The notes beneath the pieces are model-generated. The model saw only the letters and a program-made list of their open reading frames with translations, did not search any database and had not been told where the DNA came from. Of a stretch of 32,000 bases of DNA, positions 7,619 through 16,305 are shown piece by piece. Source of the DNA: Synechocystis sp. PCC 6803 substr. PCC-P (GTDB taxonomy: Bacteria > Cyanobacteriota > Cyanobacteriia > Cyanobacteriales > Microcystaceae); assembly GCF_000284455.1 (NCBI RefSeq), contig NC_017039.1:240001-272000 (forward strand), given 5' to 3'. The stretch's first letter is position 1, and every line of letters starts with the position of its first letter. The translations under genes and the position numbers were made by a program.

Positions 7619-8713
7619 ATGGGCGGTTCTGCCAAATTTTTGTCGCCAACTTCCACTTCTCTTCTGCCTTTGTCTCAATCATTTCCACCCAATTTATCTA
7701 CTCCGTCCCAGCCTGACCAAACCATTGGGGAGTTAGGAGAACAAGCTCTGTTGGCCCAACTACAAAAATTTTCCCCGGCGGAGATAACGGGGGACGATGC
7801 CGCTGTGTTCGATTTACCCAACTCGGACTCCCTGGTAATCAGCACGGATATGTTGGTGGAAAATGTCCATTTTAGTGACCAAACCACCTCCGCTTTTGAC
7901 GTGGGTTGGCGGGGAGCAGCGGCCAATTTATCGGATTTAGCAGCCATGGGGGCCACACCGACGGGTATTACTGTGGCTTTGGCTTTGCCTCCCTCCACTC
8001 CGTTGGCTTGGATTTTAGACGTTTACAAAGGTTTGACGGCTTGTTTAGAGCCTTGGCGGACTCCAATTCTGGGGGGGGATGTTTCCCGATCGCCGCTTAA
8101 AACTATTAGCATTACGGTTTTGGGTCAAGTGCCCCAGGGTAAAGCCTTGTATCGTCACCAAGCCAAAGTGGGGGATTGGATTATTGCCACCGGCGACCAT
8201 GGAACGTCTAGAGCTGGCCTGGAATGTTTACTTCATCCGCACAAGACTGAGCATTTACCACCAGAACAAAAACTAATTTGGCAACGGGCCCATCAACGGC
8301 CCCAACCCCGCTTAGATTTAGTGCCCTCCCTTCTTAGCTTGGAAACGAGCATTGGCGCCATGGACAGCAGTGACGGCCTCGCTGATGCTGTATTGCAAAT
8401 TTGTCGGGCTAGTCAGATGGGAGCGGAGTTATGGGCGGAAAAACTCCCCATCCCCCAGGGGTTGACCGATTGGGTCGGTCTGGAAACTGCCAGGGAATGG
8501 ACTCTCTATGGCGGTGAAGATTTTGAATTAATCCTCGCGATTCCCCCTTTGGAAGCACAAAAATGGCTCATGGCGATCGCCTCTTTGGATTTATCCCCCA
8601 ACCGTTCTCCTCGAGTCATTGGTCAAATCACCAATGGGACTGAGGTGTTATTAGTGCTGGAGGAGGAAAGGGTAGAAAAATTATCTCTACAGCGGGGATT
8701 TCAGCATTTTTAG
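7619..8713 (+). CDS. thiL: Thiamine-monophosphate kinase
   Basis: AIR-synthase-related fold with ThiL signatures: IGELGEQALL, GDDAAVF, LVISTDMLVENVHF, GWRGAAANLSDLAAMGA, GGD and AMDSSDGLADA. The first ATG is at 7619, immediately after TTG 7616. Confidence 0.85.
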   Translation: MGGSAKFLSPTSTSLLPLSQSFPPNLSTPSQPDQTIGELGEQALLAQLQKFSPAEITGDDAAVFDLPNSDSLVISTDMLVENVHFSDQTTSAFDVGWRGAAANLSDLAAMGATPTGITVALALPPSTPLAWILDVYKGLTACLEPWRTPILGGDVSRSPLKTISITVLGQVPQGKALYRHQAKVGDWIIATGDHGTSRAGLECLLHPHKTEHLPPEQKLIWQRAHQRPQPRLDLVPSLLSLETSIGAMDSSDGLADAVLQICRASQMGAELWAEKLPIPQGLTDWVGLETAREWTLYGGEDFELILAIPPLEAQKWLMAIASLDLSPNRSPRVIGQITNGTEVLLVLEEERVEKLSLQRGFQHF

Positions 8714-9024
8714 TTTTGATAACATCTTTCGCTGCTAGATGCAAAAAAAGTTTAGTAAATTTCTACGAATCAGAGAAACTGATCTTGAAGAAGTGGTATT
8801 TTTTCAGACTTAGGCCAAAAAGTGTGAAGATAAATTACAATACTTATGGTATTTAAGTATTATTAAAAGCTTTTATGGATCAGCGTTATAACCGCTTTAC
8901 ACGTATCAGGTTGATTCGGAATGGGTTCTAGCCCGATAGAGAGATAAATATTAGCCCCCAGACTTGTTTTACTAAGTATTATTTAAATATCTACCAAAGG
9001 GATGATGGCAGAAGAATTTTGGTA

Positions 9025-9030
9025 TATAAT
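9025..9030 (+). promoter_or_regulatory. Candidate -10 hexamer (TATAAT) for the 9062 gene
   Basis: A perfect TATAAT lies 32 nt upstream of ATG 9062, within a 348-bp AT-rich intergenic region. I see no convincing -35, so the call is weak. Confidence 0.2.
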
Positions 9031-9061
9031 GCCGCCATGATCCAATTACCAAAATCCTCCC

Positions 9062-10117
9062 ATGGTTAGAGCTATACGTCCTCCCATTGTGCCTACCCTA
9101 AAAAAGACTTGGTGGCAAAAAGGGGTTTTTAGTGCGGAAAATGGATTCGGTCGTTGGTTTCAACGGGTTTTCGGTCGTTACTTCCAGGGAAAAGAGTTAG
9201 TTTCGGAGAGTTCTTTGTTTCTCCATCAGCGGGCCATGGAGGAGGCGGGGATTTTGGGTCGGAATGCGGAAGCCCTCGACAACGAAAAATTTGGCAAGAA
9301 AGAATTCTTAGTATTAGTTCGACTCCGTTACATCCTGGCCAAAAATATCGGTGAATATAAGGGACTTAATAATAGTGTAGAACTACTTCAGGCGGCGATC
9401 GACGCCAAGGACAGCTTCATTACCATAGACCAAGCAGAACATCGTTTCCGGGGAAGCAAGCAACAGGAACTGTATCGTTTTACCGACGATCTGCTTAAAC
9501 GTTTTGAAAACACCAAGCAATTTCGCCAAGAGGTTAATGAGCGCTTCTCCGAGGCAATCCCTAATATCCAAACAGAGGAAGGACGGGTGGCAATGGAGAG
9601 CTATGCTACCCATTTGAATCGACTATCAGAGAAACCTTTGGGTCTGAAACTTCTGTCTCTGTTCAAAGCTTATCATTTGGGAGATTATTCGATTCTTCGT
9701 CAAATTTCTGATTTAGTGCAGGGTCTGAACAAAAGTGATTTGCATGAATATGAAACTCTTGTGCCGCTGGTGAAAAAAAATTATTCAGTTTTTGAAAAAT
9801 TGGGACAAATCATTAGCTTGCCCAGTGAAAAAAGTGAACCGGATACCTTTGCCAAAATGACTCAAATATTAGCCCTGAATTATAAATATCGCCTTTCCTT
9901 TGGACAATTTGAAGACTTGTTGGGCATGATGAAACGTTGGTATCGACCCTATCAAACCATTATCAACATCCGTGAAACCCATCCACCTCAGCAGTATCGA
10001 CAACCAGACCAATTTCAGGATTTGATTGCTGGTGAAAAAGTTTATTTAAAGTATAGAAACTGGCTAACGGATAAAAAATCTGGCATGGTATTTTTAGATT
10101 TTGAAGACGAAGATTGA
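9062..10117 (+). CDS. Hypothetical protein, paralog A of an unrecognised family (soluble or peripheral; basic/aromatic N-terminus)
   Basis: 351-aa ORF with an ATG start. It aligns collinearly, with no obvious gaps, to the C-terminal ~300 aa of the next gene. Shared anchors are VSESxLFL, DNxKF..EFLV...RY, G[ED]Y[KQ]GL, RG[ST]KQQ, LP...[KR]SPDT[FY], W[YH][KR]P[YF]..I[IV]NIR, IAG, [YH]RN.L.D.K[ST]G and a terminal FEDE. I recognise no catalytic or binding motif. Confidence 0.75.
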   Translation: MVRAIRPPIVPTLKKTWWQKGVFSAENGFGRWFQRVFGRYFQGKELVSESSLFLHQRAMEEAGILGRNAEALDNEKFGKKEFLVLVRLRYILAKNIGEYKGLNNSVELLQAAIDAKDSFITIDQAEHRFRGSKQQELYRFTDDLLKRFENTKQFRQEVNERFSEAIPNIQTEEGRVAMESYATHLNRLSEKPLGLKLLSLFKAYHLGDYSILRQISDLVQGLNKSDLHEYETLVPLVKKNYSVFEKLGQIISLPSEKSEPDTFAKMTQILALNYKYRLSFGQFEDLLGMMKRWYRPYQTIINIRETHPPQQYRQPDQFQDLIAGEKVYLKYRNWLTDKKSGMVFLDFEDED

Positions 10118-10159
10118 TTGATTTTTTCGTTTTTTAATTATTCCCTTGCTAATATTATT

Positions 10160-11641
10160 ATGAACTTTTATATTGCTCAAGCTAAGCCTTCGCCTTCTCC
10201 CGAAACTGAGACAGATCAATCATTTTGGGACAGAATCAAGTCTTTACTCAACTTTGCCCAAAACAAGCCTGCAGATAAGATTAATCAACAGTTACAAGAC
10301 CGCTACCATGGCATTATTCCCCCAGAAGAATTACAAGATAAAATCACTGCTGGAGAAAGGGAGGCATTGGCACAACAACTAAGTGAAGGCGGGGAAATGA
10401 ATTTGGATGCCATCCGAACCGAAGGGTCAGGGGCAGAACTAGATGCTAAACTTAACCAGATTGTCGCCATTGGTGGGGAAAATTTAGACGGAAGTGGTAG
10501 TGGTACTTTAAATTTCAGTAGTCCCTATGTTTTTGGCGGTGGATTAGTCGGCTTGCTGGTGTTGGTATGGTGCCTGCAATCTCTGAATACTTGGTCAAAT
10601 TTACGGGAAAAATTGATGGGGGAAGAGGGAGTCTATTATCAAATTTTAGAAAAGTTTGGCAAAGCTAAACCTAAGGTTTCTGAAAGTGATTTATTTCTCT
10701 ATAACAAAGCTTTGGTGGAGTTAGAAAAGCAGGCTAAAAAAGCTATCAGTATTGACAACGACAAATTTAGCAGTAATGAATTTCTTGTTTTTGCTAAAAT
10801 CCGCTATTCATTCAACAATGATGTAGGGGATTACCAAGGCTTAAAAACTTACTTACAAACTTTACAATCCGCTATTAAAGCTCAGGCTAGCTATTTAATT
10901 TTGGGGCAGGTGGAAAGCAGTTGTAGGGGAACGAAACAGCAACAGTTTTATGATTTTTGCCATCAATTACTCCATGATGATCTATCTGGGCAAGAACTGC
11001 GGCTTCAAGTCAAAGAAAAGCTTGAAGAAGTACTCAGTGTTGCTAAAACTGATGTAGGAAAAGCTAACTTAGAAAAGTATGCAGATGAAATTGGGAGGCT
11101 AGCAGATGATCCCCAGGCGATCGCCATTATGAATCGGTTTAAGGGAGAGCAAGAGGACGATTACGCCACAATGAAAAAGGTGGTAGATATTATCGGTTGT
11201 TTCAATCAGGAAGAAGTTAGTGATCGTCGTATTGTTATGCACACGACCATGGAACATTACGACGATTTTGAACACCTAGCAGACATTATTGACTTGCCAG
11301 AAGGAAAGCGGAGTCCTGATACCTATTCTCGTCTGTTACAGTATCTAGCCCTAGAACAGCGTCACCAATGGTCTTTTCTGCAATTTCAAAATTTGGTGGA
11401 GGTTTTACGACAATGGCACAAGCCCTTCCGGGCAATTGTCAATATTCGTCAAAAATACCCTGGGACAGAATTCCGTCGACCAGCAATTTTTAAGGAACCC
11501 ATTGCCGGTTTAACTTTGTACGAAAAGCATCGCAATGCCTTGATGGATAATAAGACCGGCCACAGTTTTATTGCTTTTGAAGATGAAGGGGATGACTCAG
11601 AAGATTTGACCGCAATCCCCATAGCGCCAATTCCTTCTTAG
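10160..11641 (+). CDS. Hypothetical protein, paralog B (N-terminal acidic region + one predicted TM helix + the domain shared with paralog A)
   Basis: The track ORF starts at TTG 10118, abutting the upstream stop. The first ATG is 10160 (MNFYIAQAKPS...). A single hydrophobic segment, VFGGGLVGLLVLVWCLQSL, precedes the ~300-aa domain homologous to 9062-10117. The C-terminus is an acidic tail, FEDEGDDSEDL. Confidence 0.75.
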   Translation: MNFYIAQAKPSPSPETETDQSFWDRIKSLLNFAQNKPADKINQQLQDRYHGIIPPEELQDKITAGEREALAQQLSEGGEMNLDAIRTEGSGAELDAKLNQIVAIGGENLDGSGSGTLNFSSPYVFGGGLVGLLVLVWCLQSLNTWSNLREKLMGEEGVYYQILEKFGKAKPKVSESDLFLYNKALVELEKQAKKAISIDNDKFSSNEFLVFAKIRYSFNNDVGDYQGLKTYLQTLQSAIKAQASYLILGQVESSCRGTKQQQFYDFCHQLLHDDLSGQELRLQVKEKLEEVLSVAKTDVGKANLEKYADEIGRLADDPQAIAIMNRFKGEQEDDYATMKKVVDIIGCFNQEEVSDRRIVMHTTMEHYDDFEHLADIIDLPEGKRSPDTYSRLLQYLALEQRHQWSFLQFQNLVEVLRQWHKPFRAIVNIRQKYPGTEFRRPAIFKEPIAGLTLYEKHRNALMDNKTGHSFIAFEDEGDDSEDLTAIPIAPIPS

Positions 11642-11666
11642 AATGTGTTTGGAAAGTTTTATTCTG

Positions 11667-11724
11667 CCCCCTAAATTCCCCAATAATGGGGGACTTGCAC
11701 TCAGTTTCCCCCCAAATTTGGGGG
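11667..11724. terminator. Two G/C-stem hairpins between convergent genes (possible bidirectional terminators)
   Basis: The C-run at 11667-11671 (or 11678-11681) can pair with the G-run at 11688-11692 around an AATAAT loop. A perfect palindrome, CCCCCAAATTTGGGGG, sits at 11709-11724. Both lie in the 116-bp gap between the stop at 11641 (+) and the stop at 11758 (-). There is no strong U-tail, so the call is tentative. Confidence 0.35.
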
Positions 11725-11757
11725 CCAGGGGGGCTTTTCAAACAGGCTCTTAGGCCA

Positions 11758-13116
11758 TTAGGCGATCGCCCGGTTGCGTCCTTGGGATTTAGCACTGTAT
11801 AAAGCCTGATCTGCTTCACTAATAATTCTTTCAATGGTGTCTTCCGGCATGGGAATTATACTACTAACACCAATGCTAATAGTCACATATTTACTGACTG
11901 AAGAACCTTCATGGGGAATGGCCAAAGCGGCGATCGCCTGGAGCATATTTTCCGCCATGGCTAAAGCATCTTGCCGATTTGTATTAGGTAAAACTATGAC
12001 AAATTCCTCGCCGCCGTAACGGGCTACTAAATCAGTAATGCGTTTAGCAATATCCACCAAAGTATTGGCTACTTTTTGCAAACAATCATCCCCCTTTTGG
12101 TGACCATAGAGATCATTATAAGCTTTGAAATAATCAATATCGACCAAAATCAAAGACAATGGTTTTTGTTCCCGGCAATGTCTTTGCCATTCCTGGGCTA
12201 AATACTCATCAAAGCGACGGCGGTTAGCAATGTGAGTTAAACCATCAATATTGGCTAATAGTTGCAACTGCTGATTTGCCGCTTGTAATTCCAATTCCAT
12301 CCTTTTTCGATCAGTAATATCTCGCACCGTGACAGCAAAACCATCCCCTAATTTAACTGCTACAAAATGATACCAATCAGAATTAGCAATGGGAAAATAA
12401 ATATCTTGGGTTAAAAAAGTACCCGTCTCGACCAAATTAACAAACTGGTCAAAAAGTTGGGGATCTAGGCGTTGTAAAAAACGCTTCAGTAATACCCGAC
12501 CAATTAAATCTTCCCGACTCCGATTAAAAGCTTTGGAAAGAATGGGATTAATTACTAAACAACGAAAATCTTCAATATCTCCCGTTTGGGGATTACGCAC
12601 CGCTTGCATGGCCGCAATGCCATCTAAAGCAGAATTTAAAACACTGGAAAGTAGGGCCCTCGATTGGTAGAGGACTTCTTCTGCTTCCCGGCGTTTTCTT
12701 ACTTCTCTTTTGAGGGCAATCCGTTGCCTTTGAATGGTAAACTGACCCTCTATGCGAGCCACCACTTCTTCAATTTGAAAAGGTTTGGTGATGTAGTCTA
12801 CTCCACCACATTCAAAAGCTTTAACCTTATCAAAAGTATCCCCTAGGGCACTAATAAAAATGATGGGGATATCCTGTAATTCTTCTTCTTTTTTAATCAT
12901 TTCACAGACTTGATACCCGTCCATATCTGGCATTTTAATATCAAGTAAAATCAAGTCTGGACGTTTGACTTGTAAGGTTCTAAGGGCCATTTTGCCACTG
13001 GTAACACTCCGCACCGTGTAGCCCAAATTTATTAGTAAATCACTCAACAATTGTAGGTTGTTGGGTAGGTCATCTACCAACAGGATATTTCCTTTTTTTT
13101 CATCGGTATTTTCCAT
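11758..13116 (-). CDS. Response regulator-diguanylate cyclase (REC - coiled coil - PAS-like - GGDEF)
   Basis: 452 aa. The receiver reads ILLVDDLPNN...LLDIKMPDMDGY...ISALG...KPF. The GGDEF domain carries an intact GGEEF active site and a canonical I-site RxxD five residues upstream (RITDLVARYGGEEF). A PAS-like region lies between them. The start is 8 nt downstream of the kinase stop. Confidence 0.9.
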   Translation of the reverse strand: MENTDEKKGNILLVDDLPNNLQLLSDLLINLGYTVRSVTSGKMALRTLQVKRPDLILLDIKMPDMDGYQVCEMIKKEEELQDIPIIFISALGDTFDKVKAFECGGVDYITKPFQIEEVVARIEGQFTIQRQRIALKREVRKRREAEEVLYQSRALLSSVLNSALDGIAAMQAVRNPQTGDIEDFRCLVINPILSKAFNRSREDLIGRVLLKRFLQRLDPQLFDQFVNLVETGTFLTQDIYFPIANSDWYHFVAVKLGDGFAVTVRDITDRKRMELELQAANQQLQLLANIDGLTHIANRRRFDEYLAQEWQRHCREQKPLSLILVDIDYFKAYNDLYGHQKGDDCLQKVANTLVDIAKRITDLVARYGGEEFVIVLPNTNRQDALAMAENMLQAIAALAIPHEGSSVSKYVTISIGVSSIIPMPEDTIERIISEADQALYSAKSQGRNRAIA

Positions 13117-13124
13117 AATAATTA

Positions 13125-15629
13125 CTATGATAGCGGCTCAATTAAATCAAGAATTTTTTCAAATTCAAATCTACGTACTAATTTAGTTAGATTTTGCTCC
13201 AATTCTGACTCTGAAGCTGGAATTTCTGCTATCAATTTCATTACCTGCTCAGTGTCAGCTTCTAAAAGATAATGGGATAACTGAGTCAACCAATCCTGGG
13301 ACATAATTAGAAAACTTTCTGGCTTCAGTGCGGTGTCTTCATGATTATCGTTCTTGTTTGGGGCTGACTCATAAACATATGTTACTCCTAAATGTTTGGT
13401 CAAGGAGTCAAAAATGGTGTTCTCCCGGAATGGCTTACGGAGAAAATCATCGCATCCCGCCGACAGTACGATCGCCTTTTCTTCCTCTAGCACACTGGCC
13501 GTTAGGGCCACCACCGCCGTTGCATTGCCTTTGACCTGACCCTTAATGTATTTAGTTGCTTCATAGCCGTCCATCACGGGCATTCTCATGTCCATAAAGA
13601 TTAAATGGGGCTCCCAGCTTTCCCACAGGGCGATCGCCTCCTGGCCGTTACTAGCTTCTTCGATCTCAAAACCAAAGGGAGCGAGGAGTTTAATTAGTAA
13701 TTGACGATTCACACTTTTATCATCCACCACCAGAATTTTATAGACAGGTTGTCCTGGGGTGAGGGCAAGAACTTTTTTCGCAGAGTTGGGTTCCCGACTC
13801 AAAGTTATTTCCCCCAAATCAACTAAAATCGAAAAGCTAAAGGTGGTCCCCTGGTCAACCACACTACTAACGTTAATATCTCCCCCCATTAACTTAATAA
13901 ACTGACGGGTAATTGCGAGGCCTAATCCGGTGCCTTCCTGGGCATTACGACCAGATTCTGTTTGGGAAAAAGCTTCAAATAAGTGACTCAACTCCACTTC
14001 ACTAATTCCTTTACCCGTATCTTTAATTGTGAAGTCTAACCAATATTTATTTTTAGGCTCCGTTGATGTTTCTGGGTTAATCACTTCCTGTTGTTCTGCA
14101 TTTCTAAAGTTGCTAGTTAGGACTACTTCTCCCTCCGTTGTAAATTTAATCGCGTTACTGAGAAGATTTAGCAAAATTTGTCTGAGCTTAATTTCATCGC
14201 CGTAAACGTATCTCGGTAAATCATGATCTCGAATAAAAATCAGCTCGATACCTTCATTGGCCGCCTTGAGATGCAACATATCTTCTAAATCATCCAGAAG
14301 AAGATAAAGATCAAAATTATGGCGATTTAAATGGGTTTTACCAGCTTCAATCTTAGAAAAATCAAGAATATTATTGATTAAATTTAATAAATATTCCCCG
14401 CTACGTTGAATAATGCCAGCATTTTCATACTGCTCCATTGGTAGATTTTTGGTACGCAGCATCAGCTGGGAAAAACCAATAATAGCATTGAGAGGAGAGC
14501 GCAGTTCATGGCTCATATTAGCCACAAATGTGCTTTTAGCCTTAGCCTCACTTTCAGCTATTTCTTTTGCCCTCACTAGGTCAACCTGTTTTTGTAAGGA
14601 TTCATTGTATTCTATGAGAATTTTTTCCCTTTGAGCTCTTTCTAATTCCCTTTGTTGATAGAGTTCCTGGAGCTTTTGATTTTGTTCTATTAATATCTGA
14701 TTGGTCGTAAACAATTGATTTTTCGATCTTTCATTTTCACTGAGGACGGCATTTAAAACTAGGGTTGTCATACTGATGCAAGCTAAAATTGATTGCAATA
14801 ATAAAAGTTGATCTTTGATAGCTGCTTTTTCTTGGTCTAGGGCAAGAATTAACACCAACAGGGCAGAAACTACAATTGTCAACAGAGAAGATCCAACTTC
14901 AGTGAAGCGAAAGGCTGACCAAAGTAAAAAAGGAATCAGTAGATACTCAATGGGATAACCGTTGGCAATAATTTTAACAATTAATAAAATAAAAAAAATA
15001 ATGCTAGCCGCTTCGAGCCATTGTTCTTGTAGTAGTTTAATAAATACTTTAAAATTATGATTACAAGCAATGATAAAGGGAGTAACAATCAAGAGGGCAA
15101 AAGCATCACTCAACAACCAAGTATAGGCAATTTCAGAATATAAGCCGAAAGAAATTTTCTCAAATAAATATAATAAAAATGGACAAATGATTGCAGCGGG
15201 AAGACGACTACCAAAGCAAACAAAAACAATAAATCTAATAATATTCTTAATTTTAGAAAATAGATAATTATTGGCTGTAAGAATGTCACTAAGATAGACT
15301 GAAAAAAGATTGACTAAACTGACTACCCCAGTGATCGCCACCGTTAGTATGAAATTAGCAGCACTTTCCAAACCGTGGAGAGCCATAATTTCTCCCAGTA
15401 ATAATCCCCCAACCATACCCGGCCAGACTTGGTAACCCCAAATAGATAAAAAGCCTACAGCCATACCCGTAGGAATCCAAATGGGCGATGAAGCGGTGCC
15501 CGCATAGGTAATAAATAATTGGGAAATATAGATAGTTCCATAGATGGCGATCGCCACTATAATTTGCCTTTGCCAAGACACTGATCGAAAATCAGCCAAA
15601 CCTTTGAAAACATGGTTATTGATTTGCAT
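13125..15629 (-). CDS. Hybrid sensor histidine kinase (polytopic MASE1-like N-terminus, HisKA, HATPase_c, REC, helical C-terminal tail)
   Basis: 834 aa. The first ~290 aa have multiple TM helices with a MASE1-like SPIWIPTGMAVGF...WPGMVGGLLLGE signature. They are followed by a coiled coil, the H-box SHELRSPLNAIIGFSQL, the N/G boxes NLLSNAIKFT, DTGKGI and GTGLGLAI, and the receiver ILVVDDKSVNRQLL...FMDMRMPVMDGY...LTAS...KPF. I recall this locus as a Hik-numbered hybrid kinase in Synechocystis, unverified. Confidence 0.9.
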   Translation of the reverse strand: MQINNHVFKGLADFRSVSWQRQIIVAIAIYGTIYISQLFITYAGTASSPIWIPTGMAVGFLSIWGYQVWPGMVGGLLLGEIMALHGLESAANFILTVAITGVVSLVNLFSVYLSDILTANNYLFSKIKNIIRFIVFVCFGSRLPAAIICPFLLYLFEKISFGLYSEIAYTWLLSDAFALLIVTPFIIACNHNFKVFIKLLQEQWLEAASIIFFILLIVKIIANGYPIEYLLIPFLLWSAFRFTEVGSSLLTIVVSALLVLILALDQEKAAIKDQLLLLQSILACISMTTLVLNAVLSENERSKNQLFTTNQILIEQNQKLQELYQQRELERAQREKILIEYNESLQKQVDLVRAKEIAESEAKAKSTFVANMSHELRSPLNAIIGFSQLMLRTKNLPMEQYENAGIIQRSGEYLLNLINNILDFSKIEAGKTHLNRHNFDLYLLLDDLEDMLHLKAANEGIELIFIRDHDLPRYVYGDEIKLRQILLNLLSNAIKFTTEGEVVLTSNFRNAEQQEVINPETSTEPKNKYWLDFTIKDTGKGISEVELSHLFEAFSQTESGRNAQEGTGLGLAITRQFIKLMGGDINVSSVVDQGTTFSFSILVDLGEITLSREPNSAKKVLALTPGQPVYKILVVDDKSVNRQLLIKLLAPFGFEIEEASNGQEAIALWESWEPHLIFMDMRMPVMDGYEATKYIKGQVKGNATAVVALTASVLEEEKAIVLSAGCDDFLRKPFRENTIFDSLTKHLGVTYVYESAPNKNDNHEDTALKPESFLIMSQDWLTQLSHYLLEADTEQVMKLIAEIPASESELEQNLTKLVRRFEFEKILDLIEPLS

Positions 15630-15822
15630 TTTATCTTCTATTTTTTATAGAAAAAATACTTAAATCACGGTCTGAGATGACAATAAATTATCCTAATTTT
15701 CCAGAGAGACTCTAAACAATTTAAATAAACTTAAGCTTAGTTTTGATTTCAATTTGACAACAGAAGGAGATTGTAAACCCCTCTTTTTGCCCAGAAGCGG
15801 GCTTTGGCATTGGCTCCCCACC

Positions 15823-16305
15823 CTAATGAGTTGGTTCAATGGTTTTACCCATGGCAAATCGACGTAAATTTTCTCCCCCTATGGTAACGGTTTCTTCCGC
15901 TATGACCACAAAGCCCCTGGACTCGAAAAAGGGCCGGGCTACCATACTTGCTTTAGTCTCAAGTTCCCTTACCCCGTCAGCGATGGCCAACTGCTCTACT
16001 GCTTGCATCAATATGGTGGCAATGCCCAGGCGGGTAAAGGCTGGATGGACAAAAAGCAGGTCCACCAATCCAGCGCCATTGTAGCCAATAAAGCCAATGA
16101 TGGTTTCTCCTTGCTCAGCCACCAACACCACCATGGATTCCAGGCGATCGCCCCACCGCTGTAAGTCTGGTTCGGATGGGGCCCAAGCACTTAGTTGGGC
16201 TGGGGAATAATATTTAATACCTAACTGATGGACAGCTTCAGTGAAAATTTGAATGATATTGTTTAAATCCGAGGGACGATATGGGCGTAGATGGATGGTG
16301 TTCAC
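15823..16305 (-). CDS. GNAT-family N-acetyltransferase
   Basis: The ORF runs to TTG 16359. GTG 16305 gives a typical GNAT N-terminus (M)NTIHLRPYRPSDL. The acetyl-CoA binding region reads LFVHPAFTRLGIATILMQAVE. Substrate unknown and start codon uncertain. Confidence 0.78.
   Translation of the reverse strand: MNTIHLRPYRPSDLNNIIQIFTEAVHQLGIKYYSPAQLSAWAPSEPDLQRWGDRLESMVVLVAEQGETIIGFIGYNGAGLVDLLFVHPAFTRLGIATILMQAVEQLAIADGVRELETKASMVARPFFESRGFVVIAEETVTIGGENLRRFAMGKTIEPTH

Follow-up and report, generated by a model that had tools for sequence, protein, structure and literature searches.

The closest described systems to the locus treated here are functional analogies only. In the phage-shock/IM30 system, the all-helical proteins PspA and Vipp1, whose structures are in the PDB, bind the membrane through an N-terminal amphipathic helix and act with the membrane partners PspB and PspC. 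EzrA is built of spectrin-like repeats and carries a single N-terminal transmembrane helix in front of a cytoplasmic all-helical region. Hanks-type Ser/Thr kinases have C-terminal accessory domains that usually occupy a sensor or localisation slot behind a linker. Here we describe two neighbouring open reading frames (ORFs) on the same (+) strand, slr1788 (gene A) and slr1789 (gene B), from Synechocystis sp. PCC 6803 substr. PCC-P. They lie in a stretch of 32,000 nucleotides (contig NC_017039.1, positions 240,001 to 272,000 of the forward strand), which is called the window below and whose first letter is position 1. Among cyanobacteria, Synechocystis PCC 6803 serves as the principal model organism, and nearly half of its proteins have no assigned function. 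A and B are paralogs that share a ~300-residue all-helical domain, for which neither a known protein family nor a solved structure gives a match. The genes are expressed, under purifying selection and strongly stress-induced, and the fold of their products is confidently predicted and lacks a PDB neighbor. "New" means unplaced here: lineage-specific uncharacterised families are common, this one is confined to a narrow clade, and no mechanism has been demonstrated for it.

The similarity between A and B is far beyond chance. BLASTP aligns them with 109 identities over 321 residues (34%), 62% positives and one gap (E 8e-75), so that residues 30-350 of A are collinear with residues 171-490 of B in the numbering of a 507-residue form. 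This form is the ORF at 10118-11641, counted from the first TTG, whereas the database protein Slr1789 starts at the ATG at 10160 (493 aa) instead of the TTG at 10118. An earlier note on this DNA, made by a model from the letters of the window, had claimed a collinear domain of ~300 residues with roughly a third of the positions identical, and the alignment agrees with it closely. The note had also given the annotation as "unknown protein"; by exact-sequence look-up, this is indeed the entry for both Slr1788 and Slr1789. All of the conserved islands that it listed are found in A and B. VSESxLFL, DNxKF..EFLV..RY, G[ED]Y[KQ]GL, RG[ST]KQQ, W[YH][KR]P[YF]..I[IV]NIR[EQ], IAG..Y.K[YH]RN.L.D.K[ST]G and F.FEDE are present in the two proteins, and only LP..[KR]SPDT is approximate (LPSEKSEPDTF in A and LPEGKRSPDTY in B). 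Comparison with the orthologs in an 85%-identical locus (L001) gives pN 0.095 and pS 0.70 (saturated) for A, a pN/pS of ~0.13, and pN 0.139 and pS 0.76 (saturated) for B. These values indicate that purifying selection acts on both genes.

The earlier note had been unable to place the domain in any family, and the searches leave it unplaced. Scans of A and B against NCBIfam, PADLOC (anti-phage defence) and PHROGs (phage proteins) gave no match, and neither did single-sequence or family-profile searches of the PDB sequences. In Pfam, the only hit of A was CUT (E 0.13; 12.7 bits against a cutoff of 24.4) and B had no match; among the 49 members of alignment A1, no Pfam family occurred in more than four members and none scored below E 0.002. 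AlphaFold2 models built from the family alignments are all-helical for both proteins, confirming the fold class that the note had read from composition. The mean predicted local distance difference test score (pLDDT) is 82 for A, with a predicted template-modelling score (pTM) of 0.71, and 81 for B. When these models were compared by Foldseek with 350,542 PDB chains, the best E was 0.2 and template-modelling scores (TM-scores) were mostly 0.08-0.16; the A model reached E 0.48 at best against the viral models of BFVD. Bestrophin homologs and alpha-pore-forming toxins (SmhB) fill the top rows against the PDB at noise level (E 0.2-1, TM-score 0.08-0.16, root-mean-square deviation >20 Angstrom). 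They share with A and B only a long helical, membrane-associated character and, unlike them, the family domain contains no hydrophobic transmembrane segments. Comparison of halves and thirds of the domain by hhalign revealed no internal repeats (probabilities <1%).

The resemblance to PspA/Vipp1 with PspB/PspC lies in arrangement. Like PspA and Vipp1, A is all-helical and has a predicted N-terminal amphipathic membrane-binding helix. Like PspB and PspC, B would be a bitopic membrane partner encoded beside the peripheral protein, and slr1788 and slr1789 are stress-induced alongside heat- and salt-stress genes. Both the predicted helix and the stress induction are analogous and not diagnostic. 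On the other hand, A and B have no match to PspA_IM30 in Pfam and none to a PDB structure by Foldseek; their fold of ~15 helices, mostly of 10-30 residues with many turns, differs from the ESCRT-III hairpin of PspA/IM30; and the anchor and the peripheral protein are paralogs here, unlike PspA and PspB/PspC. B and the other long family members resemble EzrA in having one N-terminal transmembrane helix followed by a cytoplasmic all-helical domain of ~330 residues. They differ from EzrA in the absence of an EzrA match in Pfam, in the lack of internal repeats noted above and in an ectodomain that is sizeable and has a conserved motif of its own. Nothing points to a link to FtsZ except two hints, the UniRef name "MinC" on one member (P0031) and a sub-threshold ZipA_C match on another (P0099, E 0.004). 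As for the kinase accessory domains, two family members (P0083 and P0165) have the domain behind a kinase and a Pro-rich linker, in the usual sensor/localisation slot, yet >98% of the family is free-standing and no known Pfam accessory domain is matched.

The family is small and clade-restricted. A word-indexed search of 5.8 billion proteins returned 59 clusters for A and 12 for B, and a HMMER profile scan of 1.84 billion representatives at 50% identity found 224 proteins at E<=1e-3, 155 of them at E<=1e-30. A locus scan covered one genome for each of 185,579 species with two A-type peptide patterns, by which divergent members may be missed. It recovered 51 loci, all cyanobacterial, and those named to genus or family level are all from unicellular or baeocyte-forming groups (Synechocystis, Snowella, Merismopediaceae, Microcystis, Crocosphaera, Cyanothece, Geminocystis, Xenococcaceae, Hyella, Pleurocapsa and Waterburya).

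Over 160 full-length members, F82 is conserved at 100%, and Y181, E126, G324, F318, Y138, P315, F283, W293, F77, R304, K202, K330 and Q268 at >90%. A and B both carry F82, Y181, E126, Y138, W293, F283, P315, F318 and G324, which places them in the family. In the domain of A, the near-invariant residues are F77, E81, F82, E126, Q134, Q135, Y138, G174, Y181, F201, K202, Q268, F283, W293, R304, P315, F318, G324 and K330. Several of the polar residues are 88-99% conserved among these 160 members, which span <35% pairwise identity. The domain might accordingly be read as an unrecognised all-alpha enzyme or a small-molecule or lipid binder, with a site formed at the membrane surface from E81, E126, Q134, Q135, Y138, Y181, K202, Q268, R304 and K330; a place close to the membrane would be apt for a lipid or an envelope precursor as substrate. 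We regard this as highly unlikely: aromatic or hydrophobic residues fill most of the invariant positions and look structural, no catalytic family was matched by sequence or by structure, and no metabolic gene is conserved in the neighborhood.

Family architecture points to the membrane. Among ~181 members with an intact start of the domain, 108 are short A-like proteins without a transmembrane helix. Long forms with one transmembrane helix directly upstream of the domain number >=49 (at least 49) by a strict scan and ~55 after correction of alignment boundaries. A signal-peptide-like N-terminus is present in 21 of 60 long forms, and 19 have both the signal peptide and the transmembrane helix, which fixes their topology as N-out/C-in. 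One member (P0079) has a C-terminal transmembrane helix in place of the N-terminal one. P0083 and P0165, both complete and <50% identical to each other, consist of a Pkinase domain (1e-37 and 1e-35, respectively), a Pro-rich linker, WW and the family domain, and have no transmembrane helix; P0165 is an ordinary gene in an NCBI assembly. From these transmembrane, signal-peptide and kinase-fusion architectures, the domain appears to be cytoplasmic and to have been put at the membrane repeatedly by different devices. Its cytoplasmic, membrane-proximal position is well supported by the family comparison, which suggests that, in nearly every case, the domain is kept at the inner face of a membrane. 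The earlier note had described a transmembrane-anchored and a peripheral-looking paralog at this one locus; the comparison bears it out and makes it a property of the whole family. The occurrence of the same domain with an N-terminal transmembrane helix, a C-terminal one, an amphipathic anchor or a Ser/Thr kinase provides testable handles in a genetically tractable host.

The individual segments of the two proteins are listed in Table 1. In the family alignment, the WW of the short forms falls where the long-form transmembrane helix has its cytoplasmic end, and the segment of A at residues 14-42 is basic, aromatic and the strongest amphipathic one of the protein, so A is plausibly a peripheral membrane protein. 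Residues 1-45 hold 9 K/R against 2 D/E together with 9 aromatic residues, and the helical hydrophobic moment of the whole protein peaks over residues 27-41 (0.86), in keeping with the amphipathic-looking N-terminus that the earlier note had described. The domain of A is modeled as ~15 helices with pLDDT mostly 83-94 and dips to 71 (block 201-210) and 70 (block 341-350). In the alignment, the acidic C-terminal tail is found in Microcystaceae/Merismopediaceae members and is absent in those of Pleurocapsales and Geminocystis; in the A model it is disordered (pLDDT 35). For B, the proposed acidic N-terminal region is likewise seen at residues 1-123 (19 D/E against 10 K/R), and one hydrophobic helix, the predicted transmembrane helix, at 124-142 of the 493-aa form. 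The N-terminal region of B is modeled with helices at 64-103 (pLDDT ~80), and its IN..[ILV].[DE]RY.G motif occurs in 34 of 61 long forms, which argues for a conserved small module and not a mere acidic spacer. The family domain of B has pLDDT >90 through most of its length. B probably has the N-out/C-in topology as well, judging from homologs with a signal peptide before the same region.

The pair is co-regulated in Synechocystis. In a lexA-disrupted mutant, slr1788 increased from 33.6 to 388 (11.6x) and from 65.9 to 359 (5.5x) RPKM units, and slr1789 from 16.3 to 152 (9.3x) and from 29.6 to 153 (5.2x) (PMC4759255, Table 1). The genes hspA, htpG, dnaJ, those for glucosylglycerol (ggpS), other salt-inducible genes and spkD were also up in this mutant (PMC4759255). 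Sll1130 was reported to repress slr1788 via a HIP1 motif in its upstream region (PMC6331805). At the protein level, a proteome study found Slr1788 under each of its five growth conditions (PMC9175036, supplement). No terminator-like site was found by a scan between A and B, and the parallel induction ratios fit one transcription unit.

Taken with the architectures, this leads us to a model of a stress-induced, membrane-associated assembly of an anchored and a peripheral paralog, which as a whole we put forward tentatively, as possible rather than probable. In this model, slr1788 and slr1789 would share one transcript and be turned on together with the heat- and salt-stress regulon. B would be a bitopic N-out/C-in anchor or sensor, consisting of a small acidic ectodomain with the IN..RY.G motif, one transmembrane helix and then the domain. 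A would be the same domain minus the anchor, located at the membrane through its basic, Trp/Phe-rich amphipathic N-terminus and probably also held there by pairing with B. Through the domain that they share, the two might assemble at the membrane as a scaffold or signalling platform induced by stress; in some lineages the same domain is fused directly to a Ser/Thr kinase. If the model is true, the pair would constitute a clade-specific membrane-stress or signalling module and might shed light on the ways in which these cyanobacteria guard or monitor their membranes.

Several observations on the two proteins weigh against the model. B has no signal peptide of its own, and translocation of its 123-residue acidic N-terminus is suggested by homology alone. 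The amphipathic helix of A (28-41 in the AlphaFold2 model) has low confidence, with a pLDDT of only 45-53. Slr1789 is absent from the proteome table that has Slr1788 (PMC9175036), and neither protein is in the complexome or APEX supplements that were searched. Sll1130 is nowadays regarded as a toxin of the MazF type (PMC10743179), so that the effect on slr1788 reported for it may be exerted post-transcriptionally. The distribution of the paralogs counts against the model as well, and is considered next together with the history of the pair.

In a neighbor-joining tree (100 bootstraps), the B clade, all long forms, and the A clade each have 100% support and each span Synechocystis, Snowella and Merismopediaceae. 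Hence A and B parted long ago and not within a single strain, which disposes of the strain-specific duplication that the earlier note had set against its own claim. A further short clade, A', and a Pleurocapsales clade, all long forms, also have 100% support, and the anchored form is plausibly ancestral. Two uncultured cyanobacterial metagenome-assembled genomes (MAGs) have a tandem short+long pair in opposite gene order (L037, 8600-10950; L038, 9971-12460). Their four genes form a clade of their own (100%), with the short pair at 89% and the long pair at 83%, so the short+long combination arose at least twice (>=2 times). The pairing looks selected on this comparison.

The pair is not always tandem, a point that the earlier note had raised for checking. 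Two or three tandem copies occur in only 12 of 52 loci, and most of the recovered loci hold one family copy in the 10 kb to either side, as far as the contig reaches. The genes are ordered as A->B, B->A or B->A->A'. Near the matching gene, only short forms are seen in Crocosphaera, Cyanothece and Microcystis and only long forms in Pleurocapsales, and these single-type loci mean that the domain can work without a paralog of the other type. Two B orthologs in Synechocystis-like MAGs (P0065 and P0066, 56-57% identity) have aroA on one side, an NTP-transferase gene on the other and no A-type neighbor. Same-type duplications occur too (A/A', and three short copies in L025). Such a distribution would be expected if A and B were independent, sub-functionalised paralogs that form no A-B complex: each would act alone or as a homo-oligomer in the same job, B fixed in the membrane and A soluble or reversibly bound, and the tandem arrangement would be a trace of duplication. 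We consider this somewhat doubtful. The tandem short+long pair arose twice independently; all six of the six B-clade genes in the recovered loci adjoin an A-type gene, a count biased by the A-type peptide patterns used for the scan; and slr1788 and slr1789 have tightly parallel induction ratios in the lexA mutant. In Crocosphaera watsonii WH 8501 (L026, ~10000-12241), the first of two tandem copies is split into ORFs of 92 and 154 aa. It gives a full-length tblastn match and is probably a pseudogene beside the intact copy of 352 aa.

The kinase fusions bear on another reading, in which signalling by Hanks-type Ser/Thr kinases would use the domain for regulation or docking, A and B are membrane-localised substrates, activators or adaptors, and B is a receptor-like sensor through its ectodomain motif. 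P0083 and P0165 join Pkinase to the N-terminal side of the domain despite their divergence, and a truncated 289-aa sequence (P0216) is apparently a third such fusion. The conservation of the extracytoplasmic motif among long forms fits sensing or binding, and spkD (sll0776) was co-induced 8-15-fold in the lexA mutant (PMC4759255). Nevertheless, this reading seems distinctly unlikely to us, since fusions are rare (two or three of ~220 members), no kinase gene is conserved beside the family, and some hundred other changes accompany that of spkD in the mutant (PMC4759255). A and B themselves have no Pkinase domain in the Pfam scan. In a bolder form of the anchored and peripheral model, a new all-alpha fold would underlie a previously unrecognised envelope- or membrane-stress module specific to this lineage. 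Here B would sense the outside via IN..RY.G and recruit A at the inner face into a signalling or membrane-protecting assembly, wired to a kinase in some lineages; this we judge unlikely. The fusion gene at L052 (8001-10097) encodes a 698-aa protein of Ser/Thr kinase and family domain. It begins with a Cys-rich, zinc-ribbon-like segment (MSYCLN..C....C..C) that is common to P0083, and it is flanked by folC-like, clpS and Rce1-like genes.

Table 1. Features of the slr1788-slr1789 locus (positions in the window; residues of B in the 493-aa form).
Feature	Position	Strand	Description and basis
Gene A, slr1788	9062..10117	+	351 aa, ATG start; short family member, no transmembrane helix; BAA16803.1 exact match
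A residues 14-42 (KKTWWQKGVFSAENGFGRWFQRVFGRYFQ)	9101..9187	+	Basic, aromatic; predicted interfacial membrane-binding amphipathic helix
A residues 46-347	9197..10102	+	Conserved all-alpha family domain (predicted fold); conservation over 160 full-length members, AlphaFold2
A residues 345-351 (LDFEDED)	10094..10114	+	Acidic-aromatic C-terminal tail; alignment
A stop TGA and 42-nt spacer (14 sense codons)	10115..10159	+	Open in the frame common to A and B
Gene B, slr1789	10160..11641	+	493 aa, ATG start; long family member, predicted bitopic; BAA16804.1 exact match
B residues 1-123	10160..10528	+	Acidic N-terminal segment of small helices, predicted extracytoplasmic; composition, AlphaFold2, homologs
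B residues 41-51 (INQQLQDRYHG)	10280..10312	+	Ectodomain motif IN..[ILV].[DE]RY.G; found in 34/61 long forms
B residues 124-142 (YVFGGGLVGLLVLVWCLQS)	10529..10585	+	Single predicted transmembrane helix; Kyte-Doolittle mean 2.01, AlphaFold2 helix 127-141
B residues 157-476	10628..11587	+	Conserved all-alpha domain (predicted fold), paralogous to A 30-350; BLASTP, AlphaFold2
Extended HIP1 palindrome GGCGATCGCC	8572..8581	.	Within thiL (3' part); 480 nt upstream of the start codon of A; nearest HIP1 upstream of slr1788
AT-rich intergenic region	8714..9061	+	348 nt upstream of A; presumably promoter and 5' untranslated region
Sll1673	11758-13116	-	REC-(PAS)-GGDEF response regulator; operon with Sll1672, convergent with B
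Sll1672	13125-15629	-	MASE1-HisKA-HATPase-REC hybrid kinase; operon with Sll1673, convergent with B

Programmed read-through of the TGA between the genes, which would fuse A and B, was considered and rejected, as the frame shared by the two is not preserved at L001. Two database entries of 879 aa (P0225 and P0228) present such a fusion. In these, both the A-B TGA and an upstream TGA (9038-9040) are read as Trp, and the fusions are a gene-calling artefact of genetic code 4, which merges Slr1788 and Slr1789 into one cluster at 90% identity. A promoter scan upstream of A gave only weak consensus matches. The HIP1 site meant in the report on Sll1130 is probably GGCGATCGCC at 8572-8581. The HIP1 palindrome itself, GCGATCGC, has 36 copies in the 32-kb window against 0.13 expected by chance (for example, at 8573-8580, 11117-11124 and 11762-11769), and one copy is inside B. 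Such hyper-abundance of HIP1 is usual in cyanobacteria.

When the ORFs of the 51 loci were clustered all against all, genes outside the family proved to be shared among close relatives only, and hence no conserved operon partner was found. The neighbors are limited to lineages: upstream of A lie malQ, a glyoxalase gene and thiL, the last of which is shared in the Synechocystis clade only, and rplU-rpmA adjoin the family in Crocosphaera/Cyanothece. In the Snowella and Merismopediaceae loci, the A-type gene is followed on its own strand by a periplasmic-binding-protein-like gene and another hybrid kinase. The match of the Snowella kinases to Sll1672 covers the catalytic core only (35-38%), and their sensor regions differ. 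A link of the pair to the MASE1 hybrid kinase/REC-GGDEF operon, a co-occurrence that the earlier note had asked about, is rejected: the operon is convergent in the window and is not conserved beside the family elsewhere. The stop codons of B and sll1673 are 116 nt apart. An ORF of 88 aa on the minus strand (11568-11834) overlaps the 3' end of B and the spacer between B and sll1673 and is probably spurious. From 9000 to 16000, a part of the window that holds slr1788, slr1789, sll1673 and sll1672, the G+C content is 0.35-0.43 against ~0.50 in the flanks, and this low-GC block consists of lineage-specific and signalling genes.

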